This document shows, one piece after another, positions 1 to 8,357 of a stretch of 8,357 nucleotides of DNA. The stretch is from the NCBI GenBank assembly GCA_002422785.1, contig DITK01000058.1, positions 1 to 8,357 of the forward strand. The letters are read 5' to 3'. Under the pieces are notes generated by a model. The model did no database searches. It worked only from the letters and a program-made list of their open reading frames with translations, and was not told the DNA's origin. Numbering within the stretch: position 1 is the stretch's first letter; every line of letters starts with the position of its first letter. Origin of the DNA: Francisellaceae bacterium UBA6186 (GTDB taxonomy: Bacteria > Pseudomonadota > Gammaproteobacteria > UBA6186 > Azoamicaceae). Position numbers and translations under genes: made by a program.

Positions 1-2
1 GG

Positions 3-89
3 GAACAAACCTACTCCCACTCAATAAACACCGATTTACTAGAACAAGCATATATGCGGCTCTTAGAGCATTTAAAAAGTAGTGTGTAA
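3..89 (+). CDS. Partial CDS (3' end only, start lies outside the window); possibly the C-terminus of a tyrosine recombinase
   Basis: Frame 3 is open from the window edge to TAA at 87-89 and reads EQTYSHSINTDLLEQAYMRLLEHLKSSV*. The T-Y-S-H-S stretch resembles the catalytic-Tyr region KDTYYHTT of the 425-aa integrase in this window. Frame 2 is also open to 82, so the frame choice rests only on this motif resemblance. Confidence 0.3.
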   Translation, partial: EQTYSHSINTDLLEQAYMRLLEHLKSSV

Positions 90-218
90 CTTTTGTGCAT
101 ATCAACGTAACCTATTAACTTTTAATGAAAGTGAAAATAACGTTTAAAAACAAACACTGAATATCAATTTGGTTACACGCTGTGCAAGATAGTAAGTCTT
201 TATTAGAGTTCAATGTTG

Positions 219-3005
219 CTAAGCTTTAACTTTTCTCTTTTTAACTGGTGCGGAAGGAAGCAAACTTGTTAGTTCTTCATAACGCTTGAACAAGAATGCA
301 ACTCTGCTAGCATCGTCATCAGTACCTTTGTATCCAAATATCTTATCAACCACTTTGTTATTCGCAGTGTGTGCTTTAGCAAGTTCTACAGGCATTGTTA
401 AAGGATCATATAAATCAGCCAAACTAAATGCTGGGTATTTTTCTCTTGCATTTAAAATATCTTGTGCAGTTTTATTTACAGCTGCATCAGCTTCTTCACT
501 TACAGATTTAGGATAAGGAAAATTGTTATAAACGATTGTATTTGAGTAACTATAATCACTTTTCATTCTTCCGCACACTGCCCTCATCCAAGCCATATGC
601 ATAGAACTATTTAAAATAGCAAAACTACTAAGAGTGGCATTAGAAACAAAAAATATTTTATCGCCACAAATAGTAGAGTTGTTTAAATATGCAATAGGTA
701 TGTAAGCTCTGCGTTCACTACTTACTTTTGGTATCGCCAAGTACGTAGAAGAATTAGATATTCTAATTTCACCAAATCGTGTTGGGCTATTAGCTAGTGC
801 AACTGTGATTTCTTTTTTAGATGCAAGTCTCATTTTTCTTACAGCTTCAACACGCTCTAATACAAGTGGCATTTTCTTAAGCTCTGATGCAGAAATATTT
901 TCTAACCATAAACACCAACGATCAATTCCATTAATAAATTCATCACCCATTAAGTAACGCTTTATCCATTTTTCTGCACTAGGTTCTTTAATTAATAAAT
1001 CATTTTTTTCATCATCACTCAATAATAAATTTCCACCATCAACAGGGGAACTTCCCCTAGTCATTGTGGGCATACTTAAAATTAGTGGTGATTTTCTTTT
1101 TTCTAATAAAACGTTAGCAGCATCAACTAAGTAAGCATTGATTTGCTTTACTTTAACTTCAACAGGCTCTAATGCAATATCTGCATATGTATATATACGC
1201 TTAATATTTCTATCAAATTTTGCAAATCCAATAACAACACAATGAACAGCAGCAATTCCTTTGCCTTCATTACTCCATTTAAATGTTTTGTGCGCAAAGT
1301 TAATTTTTATTCCCTTAGCACTTAAACTACGCCAAAGTACTGCGGGCTGTTCACCCTGTGTAATACTGTTAGTTGAAACAAAAGCACATTCGATTAATTC
1401 ATTATTCTGTATGTAATTTGCAGCTTTTACGTACCAACCACAAACATAATCGAGAACACCTGCACCATGTAATTTACCAAATACAACTTCTAAATCTTCT
1501 TTCTGCTCTTTACTTTGTACGCTGTAACCAATAAATGGTGGATTTCCCAACACATAACTACATTTAAGTGCTGATAAAACATCATCCCAGTCAATACGTA
1601 AGGCATTATTAACTGTAATTTGAGGTGTGGCAGTTAAAGGAATAGTTGCACGTGTCGTACCAAAATACTTTGCTGCCTGCTCATTTTGTTGATGATCTGT
1701 TATGTATAGAGCAACACGAGCGATATGTGCAGCAGCTTCATCTATTTCAATACCATAAAACTGTGTAAGATTGACACGGCATAGAGTTGAAACATCAAGT
1801 AACCCTCGCCTCTTATTTAATTCAAATAATTCAGCAATTACATCATTTTCTAATTTTCTTAGTTCTCTGTATGCAATAACAAGAAAATTACCACAACCAC
1901 AAGCTGGGTCAAAAAATGTAAGGGTTGGCAATTTATCGTAAAGAGTTTTAAGCTTTGTTTTATTATTCTTTGCCGTTTCAAATTCAGCTCTTAGTGTTTC
2001 TAAAAACAACGGATTAATAACACGAAGAATATTACGTTCGCTAGTGTAATGTGCACCTAACTCTCTTCTTGTAGCTTGACGTGTTTCGTGCGTTGCATGT
2101 TCCTCAAGTACACCTTGAAACATTGCACCAAATATTGCAGGACTAATTGCACTCCAATCAAGCGTTGCACACGTAAGTAATAACTCTCTCAACTCACTAT
2201 TAAAAACTGGTATACGTGTACGTTCTTCAAACAAGCTACCGTTAACATACGGAAATGCTGCAAGAGTGTCATCTAACGTACTTTGCCTATCAGCATCATT
2301 AGTATTTAAGATGTCAAAAAGTTCGTTTAGTTTTTGCCCAGTATCACTACCATCAGCTTTAGCATTTTCAACAAATCTTCTAAAGCGTCCGTTATCACCA
2401 AAAATGTTTGTGTCATCTGCAAACAAGCAAAACAACAAACGAGTTAAGAAAACTTCTAAGTCACGACCTTTAAAATTAATTCGTATTAGTGCTTCATGCA
2501 ATCTACTAATTGCATACGCCGCGTTACGATTGATTGGCGTTTCCTCGACAATTGCTGTCTGCTCATCACCATATAAAAATTTAAACCAACTACCATGTTT
2601 TGGTAATTCAGCTAGCGTTGTTTCATGTGTTTCATTAGCAGCAAGATCATGTAGGACAATACGTGAAAAGTCACTGGTAATTATGTACTTGGGACGCTCC
2701 TCTGGTTTTAGTGCAAGAAAATATTCTTGTGCTTGCTCGTAAGCTATGCCCAAGTCCTTGCCCTTACTCTTATGCTCAACAATCAGCAAGCCTGGTATAA
2801 AGCTATCAATGCGACCTAAGTTGCCATCCAACTTACGTACTTGCTGTTCAAATACAGTCACCTCTGCGGCACTAATACCAAAGCAGTTATAAAAGCTTGC
2901 CCAAAACATCTGTGCTTGCCGTTGCTCGTTCTCAGCTGTTTTGAACTGTTTGGCAAATTTCTGCAAACGTGTTTTTACTTCTGTGCTTGATAGTCGTGCT
3001 GTCAT
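219..3005 (-). CDS. MmeI-family type IIL/IIG bifunctional restriction endonuclease and N6-adenine DNA methyltransferase (single polypeptide, 928 aa from ATG 3005)
   Basis: A long ORF that matches remembered MmeI blocks along its whole length. The N-terminal PD-(D/E)xK motif is D-x9-E-x-K in GRIDSFIPGLLIVEHKSKGKDL (D codon 2805-2807, E 2775-2777, K 2769-2771). Further matching blocks are LLFCLFADDT, AAFPYVNGSLFEE, LDWSAISPAIFGAMFQ and LGAHYTSERNIL. SAM motif I is FFDPACGCGNFL (1881-1916) and catalytic motif IV is NPPF (1533-1544). C-terminal blocks are CAFVSTNSITQGEQ, KINFAHKTFKW, GDEFINGIDRWCLWL, LYDPLTMP and FLFKRYEELTSLLP. I moved the start from GTG 3029 to ATG 3005 because an AAGAGGG Shine-Dalgarno lies 5 nt upstream of the ATG, whereas the GTG falls inside the predicted -10 box. 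Confidence 0.95.
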   Translation of the reverse strand: MTARLSSTEVKTRLQKFAKQFKTAENEQRQAQMFWASFYNCFGISAAEVTVFEQQVRKLDGNLGRIDSFIPGLLIVEHKSKGKDLGIAYEQAQEYFLALKPEERPKYIITSDFSRIVLHDLAANETHETTLAELPKHGSWFKFLYGDEQTAIVEETPINRNAAYAISRLHEALIRINFKGRDLEVFLTRLLFCLFADDTNIFGDNGRFRRFVENAKADGSDTGQKLNELFDILNTNDADRQSTLDDTLAAFPYVNGSLFEERTRIPVFNSELRELLLTCATLDWSAISPAIFGAMFQGVLEEHATHETRQATRRELGAHYTSERNILRVINPLFLETLRAEFETAKNNKTKLKTLYDKLPTLTFFDPACGCGNFLVIAYRELRKLENDVIAELFELNKRRGLLDVSTLCRVNLTQFYGIEIDEAAAHIARVALYITDHQQNEQAAKYFGTTRATIPLTATPQITVNNALRIDWDDVLSALKCSYVLGNPPFIGYSVQSKEQKEDLEVVFGKLHGAGVLDYVCGWYVKAANYIQNNELIECAFVSTNSITQGEQPAVLWRSLSAKGIKINFAHKTFKWSNEGKGIAAVHCVVIGFAKFDRNIKRIYTYADIALEPVEVKVKQINAYLVDAANVLLEKRKSPLILSMPTMTRGSSPVDGGNLLLSDDEKNDLLIKEPSAEKWIKRYLMGDEFINGIDRWCLWLENISASELKKMPLVLERVEAVRKMRLASKKEITVALANSPTRFGEIRISNSSTYLAIPKVSSERRAYIPIAYLNNSTICGDKIFFVSNATLSSFAILNSSMHMAWMRAVCGRMKSDYSYSNTIVYNNFPYPKSVSEEADAAVNKTAQDILNAREKYPAFSLADLYDPLTMPVELAKAHTANNKVVDKIFGYKGTDDDASRVAFLFKRYEELTSLLPSAPVKKRKVKA

Positions 3006-3015
3006 GTTTACCCTC

Positions 3016-3057
3016 TTGTCTCGTATCACTATAGCCGCTATAGTAGTTTTGTGACAA
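3016..3057. promoter_or_regulatory. Dyad-symmetric divergent promoter pair with a perfect 17-bp palindromic operator candidate (3028-3044)
   Basis: The palindrome is ACTATAGC-C-GCTATAGT (3028-3044). Plus-strand promoter: -35 TTGTCT 3016-3021, 17-bp spacer, -10 TATAGT 3039-3044, followed by SD AGGAGA 3073-3078 and ATG 3085. Minus-strand promoter: -35 TTGTCA (complement of 3052-3057), 18-bp spacer, -10 TATAGT (complement of 3028-3033), followed by the SD and ATG 3005. The outer TTGTC and GACAA elements are also inverted repeats. Confidence 0.5.
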
Positions 3058-3084
3058 TTTTTTTATGTATACAGGAGATATGAA

Positions 3085-3384
3085 ATGGCAACGCGTAAAC
3101 CACGTACTTCAAAAACAAGTGATGAACTTAAGAAAGAGCTTGAAGCAGCTAAGAGAAAAATTGCAGATCTCGAAAAACGTGCATATGCAGAAGAACTTAC
3201 AGAGCTAATTAAATCAACTAATATTGTCGCTGATTTTACAAAAATAAAAAGCAAAGTTAAAGACATTAAACCAGTTGCAATTTTACAAGCCATCGCAAGT
3301 GCTGTTGGTTTAAAACGAGTACAGATAGTAGAACCTGAACCTGTCAAGCGTAAGCCACGTTCACCTAAAACAGGCACAAAGTAA
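3085..3384 (+). CDS. Hypothetical small basic protein (99 aa): central coiled-coil-like region with an RKPR motif in each terminal tail
   Basis: A strong SD (AGGAGA) lies 6 nt upstream of ATG 3085. The stop overlaps the next start (TAATG at 3382-3386). Charged heptad-like segment: DELKKELEAAKRKIADLEKRAYAEELTELIK. N-terminal tail TRKPRTSKT and C-terminal tail KRKPRSPKT. The antisense 119-aa ORF has no comparable signals. Confidence 0.75.
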   Translation: MATRKPRTSKTSDELKKELEAAKRKIADLEKRAYAEELTELIKSTNIVADFTKIKSKVKDIKPVAILQAIASAVGLKRVQIVEPEPVKRKPRSPKTGTK

Positions 3385-3740
3385 TGGCGGCGCAACGTAG
3401 GAAACTCACGTTGCGTGAGCAAATATTTAACGAAAAAGTTAAAGCATGGAATTTATATAACAGTATGCAAGTTCAAAAGGTACTTGAACATACAAGCAGA
3501 GATGAACAAGATGAAATCAACTATACCTATAAAAAAATATACAAATACTGGGGGGGCGTTGAATTTGTTAATTGGTTACGTGCTGTATATAAAATATGCA
3601 GAGACAGAAACAAGAATATCGAAAACATCATCATCTTAAATTTACCTAAAAGAACAGATAGTGATGCAGTGAAAATTCATAACTTAAAAGTTATTGCAAA
3701 GCAGATGGGTTTGGATGTAACTATTACTAAAAATTCTTAA
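3384..3740 (+). CDS. Hypothetical protein (118 aa), translationally coupled to the upstream gene
   Basis: ATG 3384 overlaps the upstream TAA by 1 nt. It is on the same strand as its neighbours and fits tightly between them. I recognise no family motif. It contains a G7 homopolymer at 3550-3556. Confidence 0.75.
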   Translation: MAAQRRKLTLREQIFNEKVKAWNLYNSMQVQKVLEHTSRDEQDEINYTYKKIYKYWGGVEFVNWLRAVYKICRDRNKNIENIIILNLPKRTDSDAVKIHNLKVIAKQMGLDVTITKNS

Positions 3741-3766
3741 ATTTAATTCTTAATTTGGTTACCAAC

Positions 3767-4456
3767 ATGCTTGATACAACATCATATGCTGATAAGTTAC
3801 CTCAAACACTTAATGAAACTCTAAAAGAGTTTACTGCTGGTGAATGTGTAATGGTTAGAAAAACAAAAGACAATGACAAGCGTAAAGGTAAATCAGGTAA
3901 TTGTCACATTAATGTACAAAACTGTATAGATATAGAAGGTGGAAACTCAGTAAGTGGTTGGCTACTAAAACGAGATCAAAAACTTATTGATAAAGATATG
4001 TATGCTTGGAATTTTCACAGTGTTTGGGAAAAACCTGACGGGAAATTACTTGATGTAACTGAAGATAAAAATTATATTGGTAGAGATAAAAGTATATTCG
4101 TACCAGATAGCTATAGAAAACCTGATTTAATTAAAGGTTTATCTTTTAACAGCTTTATTATTTTTACTAATCATGCGTTTACAAAGTATTACGGCAATGC
4201 TATTGGTAAAGACTTAATTTCAAACAAAATATATTGGTGTGACAATACACTTACAAATTTAATTGAAAAAGATAAACATAGTGGTGAATATCTTTTACTT
4301 AAAAATTACCCAAATAATTTAAAAAAGATGTGTGATCAATATGAATTTGATTACATAGATGGAAAATTCATTGCTCGTGCAGGAAGCAAATACGAAGGTA
4401 TGGATGGTTTACCAATACAAGCTATATTTGATTACAACTTAAAATTGAGAGCATAG
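3767..4456 (+). CDS. Hypothetical protein (229 aa from ATG 3767; alternative TTG 3755) with a putative transglutaminase-like or papain-like Cys-His-Asp core
   Basis: This is the third gene of the operon, 26 nt after the previous stop. The motifs GKSGNCHINVQNC (Cys codon 3902-3904) and WNFHSVWEKPDGKLLDVTED (His 4016-4018, Asp 4052-4054) give a C-x37-H-x11-D spacing. The local context resembles the G-x-C ... H-x-W-x-E ... D-x-T pattern of transglutaminase-like folds. Neither candidate start has a strong SD. Confidence 0.8.
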   Translation: MLDTTSYADKLPQTLNETLKEFTAGECVMVRKTKDNDKRKGKSGNCHINVQNCIDIEGGNSVSGWLLKRDQKLIDKDMYAWNFHSVWEKPDGKLLDVTEDKNYIGRDKSIFVPDSYRKPDLIKGLSFNSFIIFTNHAFTKYYGNAIGKDLISNKIYWCDNTLTNLIEKDKHSGEYLLLKNYPNNLKKMCDQYEFDYIDGKFIARAGSKYEGMDGLPIQAIFDYNLKLRA

Positions 4457-4472
4457 CTTAATTTTTATTAAA

Positions 4473-5048
4473 TTAAATTAATTCCACTGCACGCCTTTGC
4501 ATAGCCTCGTTAACATCTATATAGACCTGAGTTGTAGAAATATTGGCATGGCGAGCAAGCGACATTAATACGCGAACACCAACGCCCTTCTCAGCTAAGT
4601 TAGTAATAAAAGTACGTCTACCACTATGACTACTTGCGCCATTTATACCTGCTCGTTTGTATAGATAATGAAAATGTTGCGTTAGCGTGTTAGCTGTAAA
4701 TCCTTCACCACCCTTCTTCTGTGTATAAATCAACTTGTCTTGCTTGTTAATACATGGAACTTGTGCAATGTAAGATTGCAATTCTTTACGTAGCTTTTCA
4801 CTAACAAATACTGTTCCAGTCTTGCTACCTTTTGTTTGTTCTGCACTTAAGTAAATTTCACCTTTTACTTTATCCTCATCGTCAAGTACATCGCCATAAC
4901 GCAAACTAGCAACTTCTTTGCTACGTAATCCTGCGTAAAAAGTTAAAAGTAATGCAATACGATTTCTATGCGAATGATTACGTGTTGCAACATAATCCAA
5001 TACCTTTCGTATTTCCTGTGCTGTTAGTGTTTTTGCTTGCTTTGACAT
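4473..5048 (-). CDS. Small tyrosine site-specific recombinase, catalytic domain only (191 aa from ATG 5048; the ORF is open to ATG 5138, giving 221 aa)
   Basis: The catalytic signature is present: R in FYAGLRSKEV, H-x-x-R in SHSGRRTF, H in LARHANIS and Y in TTQVYIDV. Size and N-terminus (MSKQAKTLTAQEIRKVL) resemble FimB/FimE-type recombinases that lack an arm or core-binding domain. I prefer ATG 5048 because AGGAGA lies 6 nt upstream, and the 30-codon extension would have to read that AGG AGA as tandem rare codons. ATG 5138 has a weaker AAGGA. Confidence 0.85.
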   Translation of the reverse strand: MSKQAKTLTAQEIRKVLDYVATRNHSHRNRIALLLTFYAGLRSKEVASLRYGDVLDDEDKVKGEIYLSAEQTKGSKTGTVFVSEKLRKELQSYIAQVPCINKQDKLIYTQKKGGEGFTANTLTQHFHYLYKRAGINGASSHSGRRTFITNLAEKGVGVRVLMSLARHANISTTQVYIDVNEAMQRRAVELI

Positions 5049-5189
5049 TAATGCTCTCCTAAATGTAAGCTTTTGTATGTCTAAAGCATATTTTCTTTGT
5101 TTGTTTTCTGCGACCTTTTTATTGTTATTTTGTATCATTGCAATTTCCTTAATTAATTCAACAACTTAATGCTCCACTTACAATAAAAT

Positions 5190-5213
5190 CAAAGCTTTTG
5201 TGTATTAGCTTTG
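5190..5213. repeat. Inverted repeat CAAAGCT-N10-AGCTTTG in the recombinase upstream region
   Basis: Arms at 5190-5196 and 5207-5213 are perfect reverse complements. It contains AAGCTT. The 10-mer AAGCTTTTGT recurs as a direct repeat at 5067-5076 and 5192-5201. Confidence 0.4.
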
Positions 5214-5249
5214 GTTTTTACTAAATTGATGCATGTTGTCTATCTCCCA

Positions 5250-5358
5250 CAGCTTCAAGCTGGCGCTGTAATACGCTGTGTACGCTATTAGTCCATTTTC
5301 CTGTTATACATACACTCAGTTAGCGTTTATCTACGTTTACAGCGTGTATTGCAGCTTG
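5250..5358. repeat. Composite dyad and iteron cluster (candidate origin or recombinase/Rep binding region)
   Basis: Palindrome CAGCTT-C-AAGCTG at 5250-5262. Three tandem units follow: CGCTGTAATA (5264-5273), CGCTGTGTA (5274-5282) and CGCTATTAG (5283-5291). There is an imperfect inverted repeat of about 29 bp between 5256-5284 and 5333-5358. Its perfect cores are CAAGCTG/CAGCTTG (5256-5262 and 5352-5358) and CGCTGTAA/TTACAGCG (5264-5271 and 5337-5344). A T-rich, C-poor tract follows at about 5360-5455. Confidence 0.45.
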
Positions 5359-5468
5359 TATCAGTGTTGTTGTTTTATATTTACTTGCTGACTTTGTTGT
5401 TAGTATTTTTAACTTGTATTGTTCTGTAAGTATTAGTTAGTTTATTTTATTTAGGCAAAGCTTCGCTA

Positions 5469-5492
5469 ATTAAAGCTTAAACAAGCTTTAAT
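5469..5492. repeat. Perfect 10-bp stem, 4-nt loop hairpin ATTAAAGCTT-AAAC-AAGCTTTAAT, 38 nt downstream of the Rep-like gene stop
   Basis: Arms at 5469-5478 and 5483-5492 are exact reverse complements. It is flanked by the near-palindrome GCAAAGCTTCGC (5456-5467). Neither strand has a U-tract, so it is not a canonical intrinsic terminator. Confidence 0.45.
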
Positions 5493-5529
5493 GCAATCAG
5501 CAAAAGACAAACGTGGTCAGTAATGCTGT

Positions 5530-6057
5530 TTAAGATAGTTGCCATAACACGTTGTCCGTGTCATGCGTTCCAACTTCTTTTGTAATGTATTCCATCCAAC
5601 CGCTATCAGCTAAGTCAACTTTGTACTGTTCGTCAATCTCACAAACATGCATCTTAGCTTCACGTACCAAAGCATCAACTTGGTTTAGTGCTATATGACT
5701 TGGTAAATTACCAATAGCCAAATGTAGGTGTAAATTTTTGCTACTTCGCTGCCCTTCCACCACAACAAAGTAATTTAATTTCTTTCCATACTTTTCAGCT
5801 GCACGTTTACCAAATACTTCTCTATTCAGCTTTTGTGTAAATCGCTTTGCAACCCTATCGCAATCACTTCTTTGTAGCTTTTCAATATAAACACCATTAG
5901 CATTTTTTATACTTGAATGTTGCTTTAAGGTGAGTGTTAAAGCGATTGGGTATTGCTTGTGAAGAGAAGATGCAAATGACCTTACAGCTTGTTTGACTGT
6001 TGGTGTTGCATTTGGTTTATATGCGGTTTTATTGCGAATATCTGCTAGTGTGTACAT
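5530..6057 (-). CDS. Minimal HUH-superfamily Rep-like protein (175 aa; rolling-circle Rep, inovirus Gp2 or YagK/YfjJ-like)
   Basis: All three rolling-circle motifs occur in the canonical order. Motif 1 is IALTLTL (residues 38-44). Motif 2 (HUH) is NLHLHLAIG, with H110 at 5728-5730 and H112 at 5722-5724. Motif 3 is EYITKE, a Y-x-x-K with Y157 at 5587-5589 and K160 at 5578-5580. The pre-HUH context RFTQKLNREVFGKRAAEKYGKKLNYFVVVEG is typical of small Rep proteins. No helicase domain is present. The RBS is weak. Confidence 0.7.
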   Translation of the reverse strand: MYTLADIRNKTAYKPNATPTVKQAVRSFASSLHKQYPIALTLTLKQHSSIKNANGVYIEKLQRSDCDRVAKRFTQKLNREVFGKRAAEKYGKKLNYFVVVEGQRSSKNLHLHLAIGNLPSHIALNQVDALVREAKMHVCEIDEQYKVDLADSGWMEYITKEVGTHDTDNVLWQLS

Positions 6058-6132
6058 GCAGTTATTTATGCGAAACCAAATAAAAGCAGAAATTTTTAAG
6101 AAGGTCGCATTGATCGTAAATTCCTAATATAG

Positions 6133-6165
6133 TTTTAGCTCAATTTACTATTTTTGGAGCTAAAA
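6133..6165 (+). promoter_or_regulatory. 9-bp stem-loop that would sequester the Shine-Dalgarno of the downstream gene (or a DNA operator)
   Basis: TTTTAGCTC (6133-6141) and GAGCTAAAA (6157-6165) are perfect reverse complements separated by a 15-nt loop. The 3' arm covers the GGAG SD (6156-6159) and ends directly before ATG 6166. Confidence 0.4.
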
Positions 6166-6606
6166 ATGAGTGTTTTAAACAAGTTCAAATTGGTTGTCGC
6201 AAATCGTCAAAACAAGCTTAGCCCAACTGCTTTTAGACGTAAAAAGCTATGTGGAAAAATTGCTGAACAGCTTGCTATGGCTAAAGCAAAAAAAGAAGGT
6301 AAAACATTCATTGCTACAAAGCTTAAACGTGTTGTAGATGCGAATACTGGAATAGCAACTGATATTGAAGTTACTAAACGAGTGAAAGAATGGTACTGGT
6401 TTGAGAATAATAAAATTCAATTGCAAATCATGTACGGCACTAAGCCGCTTACATTAAATGCTAAAGGTGCAAATACAGTTGAAATTGCTAGCGGTGACGA
6501 ACTGATTAATACATTAGAAGTATTAATAGAAGCTGTTGCAACGGGTGAACTTGATGATGCAATTGAAAGTGCTAGTAAAACACTACGCGAAAGATTTGAT
6601 AAGTAA
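6166..6606 (+). CDS. Hypothetical protein (146 aa), divergent from the Rep-like gene
   Basis: A GGAG SD lies 6 nt upstream of ATG 6166, and the TTG at 6154 lacks one. It is a clean ORF followed by a hairpin. I recognise no family motif. Confidence 0.8.
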   Translation: MSVLNKFKLVVANRQNKLSPTAFRRKKLCGKIAEQLAMAKAKKEGKTFIATKLKRVVDANTGIATDIEVTKRVKEWYWFENNKIQLQIMYGTKPLTLNAKGANTVEIASGDELINTLEVLIEAVATGELDDAIESASKTLRERFDK

Positions 6607-6614
6607 TTTAAGCT

Positions 6615-6660
6615 GCTGCATTAGTAGCCAAATTACTAATGTAGCAATTTAAAGTTAATT
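6615..6660 (+). terminator. Putative rho-independent terminator after the 146-aa gene
   Basis: A 12-bp stem, GCTGCATTAGTA (6615-6626) paired with TACTAATGTAGC (6634-6645), includes one G-U pair and has a 7-nt loop. It starts 9 nt after the stop. The following tract is A/U-rich but has no clean U-run. Confidence 0.45.
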
Positions 6661-6789
6661 TTATAAATGCTTGGGTTACCAATGCACTATCTACAGTAAG
6701 CACCACTCACGCTTTTTTAATTGCTGAGTATGAATATGGTATTGGCAATGTACTGATGATTGGTACTATGATTATTAATTATTAATGGT

Positions 6790-6984
6790 ATGAAAATAAA
6801 AGAAATTACAACATTACAGTCATCCGCTACAAAAACACCGCAACAACAAAGAATTGCAGGTCTACAGCGACAAAAACAAGTGGCAAGTGATGCACTTAAG
6901 GCTGAACGTAATAGACAAAAAATACAAAAAGCACAAAGTCAAATTGCAAAAGTAAAAGCTACTGCGTCTGCAACTAACTTATAA
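6790..6984 (+). CDS. Possible small Q/K-rich protein (64 aa)
   Basis: This is the only ORF in the 470-bp gap between 6606 and 7080. It has low-complexity, coiled-coil-like composition and a poor RBS. It could be spurious. Confidence 0.35.
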   Translation: MKIKEITTLQSSATKTPQQQRIAGLQRQKQVASDALKAERNRQKIQKAQSQIAKVKATASATNL

Positions 6985-7079
6985 CCGTCTACAAGCTACT
7001 GTTTTATATTCTTTTAACGGAACGGTTTACGAATTTATTTTGCGTTGCTGTAGGGTTATTTTGACATAAAAATTAACTT

Positions 7080-8357
7080 TTAACGTGGCAAAATCAATCC
7101 GTCTTTAATAACGTATTGTGCCAGTGCATTAGTTACCATTCGTTCTTTAGTAGTATGGTAATAAGTATCTTTAATTTGTTTTACGCTTGTTCCACACATT
7201 TCAGCAACTGCACTTAGCGAAAGATTACTATTAATCTTATCTGTAATAAAGTAATGTCTGCAGCTATACGGAACAATATCTCGTGTATTCAAGTTCATTA
7301 TTTCAGCTTTATCTAATAAAACTTTGAAATGATGGTCAATTGCACGAACTGTTATTGGTACATAACCGTTAGTGCTAAAAATTAACGCATCAGTTAGTTT
7401 TTTAGGTTTTTCTTTACTTGCTTCTTGTGCATAAAATTTAGGCTTGAATAACTTTAGTAATCTATCAAAATAATCTAAATCTTTAACCATAAAGACACGA
7501 GTTTTATCAACTTTACTCGTCTCAGCACGTACAGTTATTTTAACTAATTCGTGTTCTTCACCCTCATAAGTGTGTGTCTCATGTCGTATATCTTGCCAAC
7601 GTAATTGTAATTGCTCACCACGTCTTAATCCCGTCATAATTGCAATTGCAATATGAAAACATACTAGCGCTTTTACATAATTTTTATCATCATCTGTATC
7701 TTTCAGTGCTTCTTCTAAATATTCATTTAGTGCTTTCCAGAAGTCATTCATTTCTTCAGTTGTAAAGATACTGCGTCTTAACTTATCGTCTCCCTTATCT
7801 AACTTCTTCAATTTCTTAAATTCAAAACCATCAATGTCAGTTAACTTATTTTTATAAAGCCAACTCATCATTGCATTTATTGTGCTCTGTTCGTTAAGTA
7901 CAGTTGTTTGGCTAACAGCAATGCTTTTTTTTGTTTTAGTACGATTGCTTGAATAGTTAAAGCAATCCATTCGCTCTAACTCTTTCAGCTTTGTATCTTT
8001 CTTAATGAAGTTTAGCCAATGCTCTAAGTGCGTTTTAATTGTAGACAAACGACCTTTTACAATAATGCCGTCATCAACATCAATTTGCCGTTGCTTAACG
8101 TAACGATCAACACCCTCTTTTGTTGTTATTGAAAAGTAAGGTTTGTTGTTAGCTTCTAATACTTTTAATTCGTAATAGTATTTTTCAGCTTTATCTATTG
8201 CTGTTTGTCTATTTCTTACTTTAAGACTGAAACGTGCGTACTTGTGTTCTTTTACAAGCCACATCCTAAAGTGCCAAAACTCGCCGCGTTTATATAAGAG
8301 TACGTTGTCAAACAACGCAATCTCGTCTTCGCTAAATTCTTTTTTCTTAAGTGTCAT
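7080..8357 (-). CDS. Tyrosine integrase (phage-integrase family, 425 aa; the start codon coincides with the window edge)
   Basis: The N-terminus is integrase-like (LLYKRGEFWHFRMWLVKEHKYARFSLK). Box I is TGLRRGEQLQLRWQDI. The box II region is PYSCRHYFITDK ... MCGTSVKQIKDTYYH. The ATG occupies 8355-8357, so upstream signals cannot be seen. Confidence 0.9.
   Translation of the reverse strand: MTLKKKEFSEDEIALFDNVLLYKRGEFWHFRMWLVKEHKYARFSLKVRNRQTAIDKAEKYYYELKVLEANNKPYFSITTKEGVDRYVKQRQIDVDDGIIVKGRLSTIKTHLEHWLNFIKKDTKLKELERMDCFNYSSNRTKTKKSIAVSQTTVLNEQSTINAMMSWLYKNKLTDIDGFEFKKLKKLDKGDDKLRRSIFTTEEMNDFWKALNEYLEEALKDTDDDKNYVKALVCFHIAIAIMTGLRRGEQLQLRWQDIRHETHTYEGEEHELVKITVRAETSKVDKTRVFMVKDLDYFDRLLKLFKPKFYAQEASKEKPKKLTDALIFSTNGYVPITVRAIDHHFKVLLDKAEIMNLNTRDIVPYSCRHYFITDKINSNLSLSAVAEMCGTSVKQIKDTYYHTTKERMVTNALAQYVIKDGLILPR

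Follow-up and report, generated by a model that had tools for sequence, protein, structure and literature searches.

Interchangeable cargo beside a shared divergent promoter: an MmeI-family restriction enzyme and three orphan genes on a compact integrative element

Do two transcription units that stand back to back and share one control region have to be functional partners? This question is raised by an 8,357-nt stretch of contig DITK01000058.1 (assembly GCA_002422785.1, Francisellaceae bacterium UBA6186), which was analysed in full and is called the window here. On its minus strand, a gene at 219–3005 (start at 3005) encodes a 928-amino-acid (aa) MmeI-family type IIG restriction-modification (RM) enzyme. 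Across a 79-nt intergenic region, and transcribed divergently on the plus strand, lie ORF1 (3085–3384; 99 aa, isoelectric point (pI) 10.1), ORF2 (3384–3740; 118 aa, pI 9.7), and ORF3 (3767–4456; 229 aa from its ATG, or 233 aa from an alternative TTG start upstream at 3755). An earlier note on this DNA had treated the three small genes as a single uncharacterised module, functionally linked to MmeI through the dyad-symmetric region between them. Its description of the genes was confirmed on the sequence, including the ORF sizes, the TAATG at 3382–3386 in which the ORF1 stop overlaps the ORF2 start, and the 26-nt gap between ORF2 and ORF3 (3741–3766). Its MmeI-family assignment also held, as the product carried all five MmeI Pfam domains (MmeI_N, hel, Mtase, TRD, and C; E 1e-22 to 1e-91) and matched PADLOC REase_MTase_IIG over its whole length (1146 bits). 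The proposed functional link did not hold up. We consider it probable that MmeI and ORF3 are interchangeable cargo in two independent slots of a mobile element and that ORF1 and ORF2 are part of its backbone, with the functions that we infer for them set out below.

Fifty-odd related loci were gathered through homologues of ORF1, ORF2, and ORF3, all of them from freshwater or Baltic metagenomes. These metagenomic contigs or loci are numbered with an L (L001, L035, L053, and so on), and W denotes the window. At the DNA level, W and L053 were homologous at 13–217, 3003–3733, and 4472–8357, and the two gaps left in this alignment are exactly the MmeI coding sequence and ORF3. The interval 218–3002 is swapped in L053 for an HNH gene, genes for proteins of 153 aa and 177 aa, and a DUF4268 gene. 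When W was aligned with L035 and L050, whose MmeI proteins share 88% and 73% aa identity with that of W, only the ORF3 block (3734–4471) was unmatched. This block is swapped for unrelated genes in L035, L050, L053, and L030; the genes that take the place of ORF3 in the MmeI-bearing elements L035 and L050 encode 149 aa and 97 aa, respectively. At the level of gene order, the comparisons demonstrate a backbone with two gene-exact slots, in which a predicted backbone promoter, leader, and ribosome-binding site (RBS) feed the cargo of slot A. Slot A lies leftward of the promoter and held the HNH cluster, type I or type III RM systems, UmuC, porins, or other genes elsewhere. Slot B extends from the ORF2 stop to the stop of the small tyrosine recombinase Rec221 (4473–5138, minus strand, convergent with the trio; Pfam Phage_integrase 1.5e-26), and was found elsewhere to hold unrelated genes of 97, 149, 184, or 213 aa, or to be empty. 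The single module of the earlier note thus separates into ORF1–ORF2, which stay with the backbone, and ORF3, which is swapped on its own.

Slot-B genes began 2–26 nt past the ORF2 stop and ended 0–16 nt before the recombinase stop. No repeats were found at the slot boundaries, where the junctions measured 0–26 nt, and integron-like attC repeats were sought there and rejected. The boundaries fall at start and stop codons, a pattern that points to homologous exchange. We also considered whether the slot-B alternatives of 213, 149, 97, and 184 aa were divergent ORF3 homologues, and this was ruled out by profile search; the one relationship that emerged was that of a 128-aa protein of L044, which is a distant ORF2 (E 1.4e-4). 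The 12.8-kb contig L001, found by exact-protein look-up, was 98% identical to window 1900–8357. Identity was 100% over 1900–2590 and 3400–8357, and all 129 differences fell within one ~800-bp patch (2590–3399). This patch spans the first ~138 MmeI codons (the nuclease domain), the promoter region, and ORF1 (synonymous divergence, dS, ~1.0), and it ends at the ORF1/ORF2 junction; the tract marks a recent recombination, with the promoter at its centre. A 2-kb contig from the same ENA sample as L001 (L138) carried an ORF1 identical to that of the window and an ORF3 that was just 85% identical, which adds to the evidence that, inside a single community, slot B can diverge or be exchanged without ORF1.

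By its predicted ends, the window is almost exactly one ~8.5-kb AT-rich integrative element, bounded by the att core and the integrase and targeted to the 3′ end of guaA. This gene is a documented integration site (PMC4701971, PMC5704250). In L001, an integrated copy, the contig runs on past the island integrase Int425 (7080–8357 of the window, minus strand; Pfam Phage_integrase 1.2e-11) into guaA and then guaB, with ~158 nt between Int425 and the guaA stop. A 13-nt core, ACTCCCACTCAAT, which copies the last guaA codons and stop (..IEWE-stop), lies at the guaA stop beside Int425 in L001 (6617–6629). It is repeated, without assigned strand, at window 13–25, just beyond the MmeI 3′ end, and marks the cargo-side end of the island; it is from these two copies that the window is taken as almost exactly one island. 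The locus therefore has a tyrosine integrase next to the 3′ end of guaA and a second copy of the core at the opposite end, as is expected of a guaA-targeting element. Relatives that are circular or tandem (L053, L050, L009, and L030) have this core as well, placed between Int and their cargo. The ends of L053 (8148 nt) and L040 (6560 nt) overlap directly, by 30 nt and 84 nt, which points to circular contigs, and L044 (12145 nt) consists of two tandem 6.6-kb units; the element consequently also exists as a circle or in arrays. The mobile, defence-island setting described in the earlier note was borne out by the flanking recombinase and by a variable slot that often carries type I, IIG, or III RM systems or the HNH cluster.

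The G+C content was 34% in the island (window 1–8357) and 54% in the guaA–guaB flank (L001 6615–12555), an unusually large composition gap for an integrated element. The guaA protein of L001 shared at most 84% identity with any GTDB representative scanned, with the best matches to metagenome-assembled genomes of Burkholderiales-type Betaproteobacteria, and the integration host is, as judged from this flank, an uncultured freshwater betaproteobacterium. Island genes were found in none of 80 genomic guaA loci, the window had no megablast match among plasmids and phages, and an Rfam search gave no match.

The gene neighbourhoods did not support the trio as one evolutionary unit specifically tied to MmeI, as far as linkage across these loci can indicate. 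ORF1–ORF2 occurred in nine element lineages and MmeI in only three of these (W, L035, and L050), which are close relatives with Rec221 at least 90% identical. Otherwise the cargo neighbours of the pair were the HNH cluster (L053), a 457-aa unknown (L030), FG-GAP (L040), an outer membrane protein (OMP; L043), a porin (L044), and Sel1 (L015). ORF1 and ORF2 were paired beside the small recombinase in eight of the nine lineages, and L015 had ORF1 without ORF2. For ORF3, which occurred in at least 12 lineages, MmeI was present only in the window's own. Its homologues adjoin the small recombinase, convergently, in essentially every element locus, and upstream of them were type III RM (Mod + Res), type I RM (HsdM + HsdS), a UmuC-like polymerase, a MORN-AAA ATPase, Sel1, and unknowns. 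A plasmid database held 327 records with MmeI-family proteins, and no record in it, these included, had a detectable homologue of ORF1 or ORF2. The earlier note had itself held that trio homologues without conserved linkage to MmeI-like genes would speak against its proposal, and this is largely what the survey of neighbourhoods found.

One rival explanation would nevertheless keep the trio, or ORF1–ORF2 alone, as a dedicated accessory or controller of MmeI that times restriction after entry into a new host, in the manner of RM controller (C) proteins. C proteins are small Xre-type helix-turn-helix (HTH) proteins, linked to and usually co-transcribed with the restriction gene, that bind a palindromic operator in the promoter. 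The window resembles such systems in having a small gene beside a restriction gene and a palindrome in the shared promoter region of a divergent layout. Moreover, MmeI is present in three of the four closest relatives, always with ORF1–ORF2, and the W/L001 recombination patch covers the MmeI N-terminal domain, the promoter, and ORF1. ORF1 and ORF2 differ from C proteins in that no HTH was detected in them (Pfam, NCBIfam), they are divergent from the restriction gene, and they serve non-RM cargo; the promoter also stands beside the HNH cluster and the 457-aa unknown, and the pair beside FG-GAP, OMP, porin, and Sel1. In addition, the other MmeI-bearing elements lack ORF3, and MmeI-family enzymes occur elsewhere without ORF1–ORF2, as in the 327 plasmid records. 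MmeI is also biochemically a self-sufficient, single-polypeptide RM system (PMC2582602, PMC2731913). We therefore regard a dedicated MmeI controller as very unlikely, and as the least likely reading.

The control region between the two units was consistent with a backbone function. A consensus promoter scan detected overlapping divergent sigma-70-like promoters on opposite strands at 3016–3057, scoring 9/12 and 10/12. The rightward promoter has its −35 element, TTGTCT, at 3016–3021 and its −10 element, TATAGT, at 3039–3044; the leftward promoter has TTGTCA at 3057–3052 and TATAGT at 3033–3028. The perfect dyad ACTATAGC-C-GCTATAGT (3028–3044) lies inside this region and is made up of the two −10 boxes and a palindromic 5-nt centre. 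Each −10 box falls within the spacer of the opposite promoter, and the predicted promoters are thus fully interleaved. The dyad was the sole perfect palindrome with arms of at least 8 nt in the window, and shuffled sequences gave 1.1 ± 1.2. Its presence alone is not significant; it is real because it is conserved in five related element lineages. Specifically, the dyad and both −35 regions were kept in W, L001, L035, L050, L053, and L030. The ACTATA-N5-TATAGT motif, the −35 elements, and the leftward leader and RBS up to the cargo ATG were kept both before MmeI (W, L001, L035, and L050) and before HNH (L053), the conserved cargo leader GAGACAAGAGGG(C/T)TAACATG preceding MmeI or HNH alike. In L030, the motif and promoter elements recur, with the leftward cargo gene starting ~100 nt away. 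The dyad centre of L030 carries a symmetric change, from GC.GC to AC.GT, a single event which hints that a protein may bind the palindrome. The motif was absent in lineages with ORF1–ORF2 downstream of co-directional cargo.

Since the promoter and leader are kept whatever the cargo, the control region belongs to the backbone and serves any cargo. The earlier note was right that the two units share one conserved dyad, but its use as a link between MmeI and the trio fails, as the dyad is kept beside HNH or an unknown gene. Because the promoters are interleaved, their geometry suggests that RNA polymerase would occupy one of them at a time, and the slot-A cargo would then compete for initiation with the operon formed by ORF1, ORF2, and slot B.

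ORF1, ORF2, and ORF3 were all under purifying selection, with pairwise ratios of nonsynonymous to synonymous substitution (dN/dS) of 0.07–0.14 (0.07–0.13 for ORF1 and 0.08–0.14 for ORF2). Their close homologues formed 55, 42, and 59 clusters at 90% identity, respectively. The earlier note could place none of the three in a known family, and searches of Pfam, NCBIfam, PADLOC, and PHROGs agreed, with no family fitting at meaningful thresholds. In PADLOC-DB v2, only MmeI matched and the three ORFs had no match at E ≤ 1; no HTH family was found for any of them at E ≤ 1 in Pfam or NCBIfam. Sequence searches with ORF1 and ORF2 against the PDB gave no match. The basic tails noticed earlier were confirmed in the homologue alignment of ORF1, where both ends are conserved: a basic N-terminus (MATRKPR..KTS) and a C-terminal tail rich in Pro, Lys, and Arg (..KRKP..). 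Between them lies a long predicted helical, coiled-coil-like segment with weak matches to coiled-coil-type profiles. ORF2 has the invariant motifs WGGVE..WL and IAKQMGLDVTIT, and a basic C-terminal tail is added in many homologues. Its AlphaFold2 (AF2) model consists of four helices (predicted local distance difference test (pLDDT) 75) and had no fold match in the PDB. We propose that ORF1 and ORF2 would bind element DNA, perhaps at the palindromic promoter, in the regulation or maintenance of the element; as judged from sequence, they are small basic proteins that most likely act on element DNA and are not dedicated partners of MmeI.

Two further ideas about these proteins were tried and rejected. 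The first, that ORF1 and ORF2 are paralogues related through a shared C-terminal motif, received an hhalign probability of 1.5%. The second was that ORF1 and another small basic protein, c9, are H-NS-like or truncated H-NS proteins. It had been prompted by an 'h..h...GL' motif with a basic tail and by the position of an AT-rich island in a GC-rich host. No Pfam Histone_HNS or PDB match was found, and the ORF1 alignment gave an hhalign probability of 0.1% against an approximate E. coli H-NS sequence. This c9, likewise a small basic coiled-coil protein, precedes ORF3 in L013, L016, L023, and L024. In lineages without ORF1–ORF2 (L006–L010, L014, L019, and L021–L022), a small basic protein with a Lys-rich tail, c6 (112–151 aa), heads the leftward cargo operon, for example as c6-Mod-Res, and the region between c6 and ORF3 has its own palindrome, TTACACT-ct-AGTGTAA. 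Both c6 and c9 may be analogues of ORF1.

The layout of ORF1–ORF2 also recalls a type II toxin-antitoxin (TA) addiction pair, in which ORF1 would be the DNA-binding, autoregulating antitoxin and ORF2 the toxin. Two small genes with a one-base stop-start overlap, a palindrome over the −10 box ahead of them, and a location in the backbone of a mobile element would all suit such a pair, and the ORF1 without ORF2 in L015 is what an orphan antitoxin would look like. However, no toxin or antitoxin family in Pfam, NCBIfam, or PADLOC matched either protein, both are strongly basic, ORF2 had no toxin-like fold match, and several lineages have the pair downstream of cargo without the palindrome. A TA pair is thus unlikely in our estimation, and we prefer to see ORF1 and ORF2 as backbone proteins that act on element DNA.

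ORF3 contains the invariant residues C46, H47, N49, H84, D96, and H171. C46, H84, and D96 were invariant in 29 close homologues; among 76 distant homologues, the Cys and His were invariant and the Asp at least 90% conserved. In the AF2 model (pLDDT 90), C46 starts helix 46–57, H84 lies in strand 78–88, and D96 in strand 94–96. ORF3 thus has the order known from papain-like, NlpC/P60, and transglutaminase-like hydrolases, with a Cys at a helix N-terminus followed by His and Asp on consecutive beta-strands. It differs from them in that Foldseek found no PDB match despite the confident model (none at E ≤ 1e-3; best E 0.26, TM ≤ 0.2), nor did ORF3 match Pfam or PDB by sequence. The Cys-His-Asp enzyme core predicted in the earlier note therefore stands as far as conserved residues are concerned, but not as a fold matched to a PDB structure. 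Resemblance to the metal proteins NosL or MerB was considered and rejected: residues 60–100 gave a marginal profile match to the copper chaperone NosL (E 0.011; segment GW..LYV..SVW.KPD.G.L.D.T), covering 40 residues, and there was no fold match.

A profile search of 1.84 billion representatives recovered 867 ORF3 relatives (50%-identity clusters, E ≤ 1e-3) with the core motif CHxNV..GW..FHSVW..DVT. No Pfam family covered this core in any of the 76 distant members scanned, and the family was not found in GTDB genomes or IMG/VR. ORF3 founds what appears to be an unannotated Cys/His/Asp domain superfamily of ~870 clusters, a large family that, from its matches, occurs on integrative elements and conjugative plasmids. 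Among the large conjugative plasmids of Acinetobacter, pA297-3 for example, a hypothetical protein of 160 aa contains a segment 31.6% identical to the ORF3 core and is encoded among runs of small hypothetical genes; the domain was also found on Xanthomonas plasmids. Weak fold matches were to uncharacterised phage proteins. L028 (9902–12025) and L029 show a normal chromosomal setting that has neither a recombinase nor RM genes; here a gene for a 180-aa unknown stands between two divergent paralogues of ORF3 (35% and 29% identity), downstream of AsmA and MutY. We propose that ORF3, with its Cys/His/Asp centre, would be an accessory enzyme that was acquired on its own and that serves the element, through host manipulation or counter-defence, and not MmeI.

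A more specific version of this idea takes ORF3, and slot B in general, as anti-defence cargo, such as anti-restriction genes, that aids the element, or its helper, in becoming established in RM-armed hosts. It would explain the fast turnover of slot B among near-identical backbones, and it suits the placement of ORF3-domain relatives amid small hypothetical genes on conjugative Acinetobacter plasmids as well as the weak phage-protein fold matches. Three slot-B alternatives (L035 4652–5101, L011 986–1492, and L031 3059–3700) were strongly acidic, with pI 4.4 and net charges of −12 to −20, and those at −16 to −20 resemble DNA mimics in this respect. They are reminiscent of DNA-mimic anti-restriction proteins, yet had no detectable homology to anything. 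On the other hand, slot-B proteins had no homology to known anti-defence proteins and no match in PHROGs, ORF3 itself is near neutral, and its distant paralogues stand in an ordinary chromosomal context. This explanation is therefore tentative and, on balance, rather unlikely. The opposite role, in which ORF3 is an effector of defence or abortive infection and complements the RM cargo as a hydrolase toxin of the Cys-His-Asp type, could draw on the conserved putative triad and on elements shared with RM systems of three types. We give it very little credence, as ORF3 had no PADLOC match, is a single gene without sensor or partner, and also accompanies non-defence cargo such as UmuC and Sel1.

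The account that we favour remains that of a backbone including ORF1–ORF2, with MmeI and ORF3 as separate cargo, and several observations weigh against it. Neither ORF1 nor ORF2 showed a DNA-binding fold in Pfam and PDB sequence searches, nor did ORF2 in a fold search. The dyad was restricted to lineages that have ORF1–ORF2, a distribution that suits binding by ORF1 or ORF2 and shared ancestry equally. For ORF3, Foldseek against the PDB did not confirm a papain-like fold, and its Cys, His, and Asp residues could bind metal instead. Finally, because three of the four closest relatives carry MmeI, and because the W/L001 patch takes in the MmeI N-terminus, promoter, and ORF1 together, there may be a looser functional relationship between the trio and MmeI within this sub-clade.

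The element backbone comprises Int425, ORF64, DUF6641, Rep175, Rec221, ORF2, and ORF1, along with the bidirectional promoter. Rec221 was the most constant neighbour of both ORF1–ORF2 and ORF3 and was present in essentially all related element loci. Its homologues are 190–221 aa long, about the size of a catalytic domain, and show weak NCBIfam similarity to Fim-type invertases. Multimer resolution of the circular form is a possibility for its role. A Fim-like invertase that flips the promoter or the trio was considered and rejected, as no convincing inverted repeats were found around the region. Rep175 (5530–6057, minus strand) is a small replication initiator-like protein (Pfam REP_ORF2-G2P 1.1e-7, above the cut-off) that is kept in relatives. 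It is followed by the DUF6641 backbone protein (6166–6606, plus strand; Pfam 3.3e-9; PHROG 31551 1.6e-18), on which a literature search found nothing, and by the small basic backbone protein ORF64 (6790–6984, plus strand), kept in L013, L018, L030, L044, L050, and L053. A conserved non-coding block of the backbone (82–217, no strand assigned) lies between the att core and the cargo slot, and it was 72–74% identical to L035, L050, and L053, though the cargo of L053 differs. Within it, 82–99 and 168–192 were kept exactly in L035, L050, and L053 or L054 whatever the cargo; they may serve as arm sites for the integrase, as an origin, or as a signal for transfer.

Integrative elements that carry defence genes in cargo hot spots are already known, and what is undescribed is the compact variant with gene-exact slots, an expression platform, and three orphan families. 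The element resembles other small genomic islands, such as guaA-targeting integrative and conjugative (ICE) or mobilizable (IME) elements and AICE/pSAM2-type elements with Int and Rep, in its tyrosine integrase at the 3′ end of a conserved gene, whose end is regenerated. It also resembles them in its Rep protein, circular forms, strongly atypical base composition, and variable slot, which is loaded with nuclease genes and with RM systems of types I, IIG, and III. It differs in being only 6.5–8.5 kb family-wide, in having a second small tyrosine recombinase, in having no recognised relaxase or transfer genes, and in its two gene-exact slots, one fed by a backbone promoter, leader, and RBS; ORF1, ORF2, DUF6641, and ORF64 are uncharacterised. 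With the Pc promoter and cassettes of integrons it shares the expression of interchangeable, promoterless cargo from backbone signals, with a tyrosine recombinase nearby, but there are no attC-like repeats at the slots, the boundaries lie at start and stop codons, and whole multi-gene systems occupy a slot.

The inference to be corrected is therefore that genes standing back to back around one dyad have to be functional partners; the link here is that of a cargo slot to a backbone. The analysis describes a compact element family, so far known from metagenomes only, through which three types of RM system are moved between freshwater bacteria and whose backbone promoter would express any inserted cargo, and it adds three conserved orphan protein families. 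The ORF3 domain, with ~870 clusters, a presence on conjugative plasmids of clinical Acinetobacter, and a confident model, is a good target for structural work and anti-defence screening. A more far-reaching picture would have these tiny (6.5–8.5 kb) guaA elements shuttle defence genes in freshwater Betaproteobacteria in a plug-and-play manner. The backbone would lend its interleaved bidirectional promoter and its leader to any toxic cargo, be it a type I, IIG, or III RM system or an HNH system. ORF1–ORF2 would then be a generic palindrome-binding controller, not of the C-protein type, that times cargo expression at establishment, and slot B, including ORF3 with its apparent new fold, would supply the matching counter-defence. 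Taken as a whole, we hold this picture to be distinctly unlikely.

A minor feature of the region is a 119-aa antisense ORF on the minus strand (3063–3422), which overlaps ORF1. It showed no conservation as a family, and in AT-rich sequence such an ORF most likely arose by chance.

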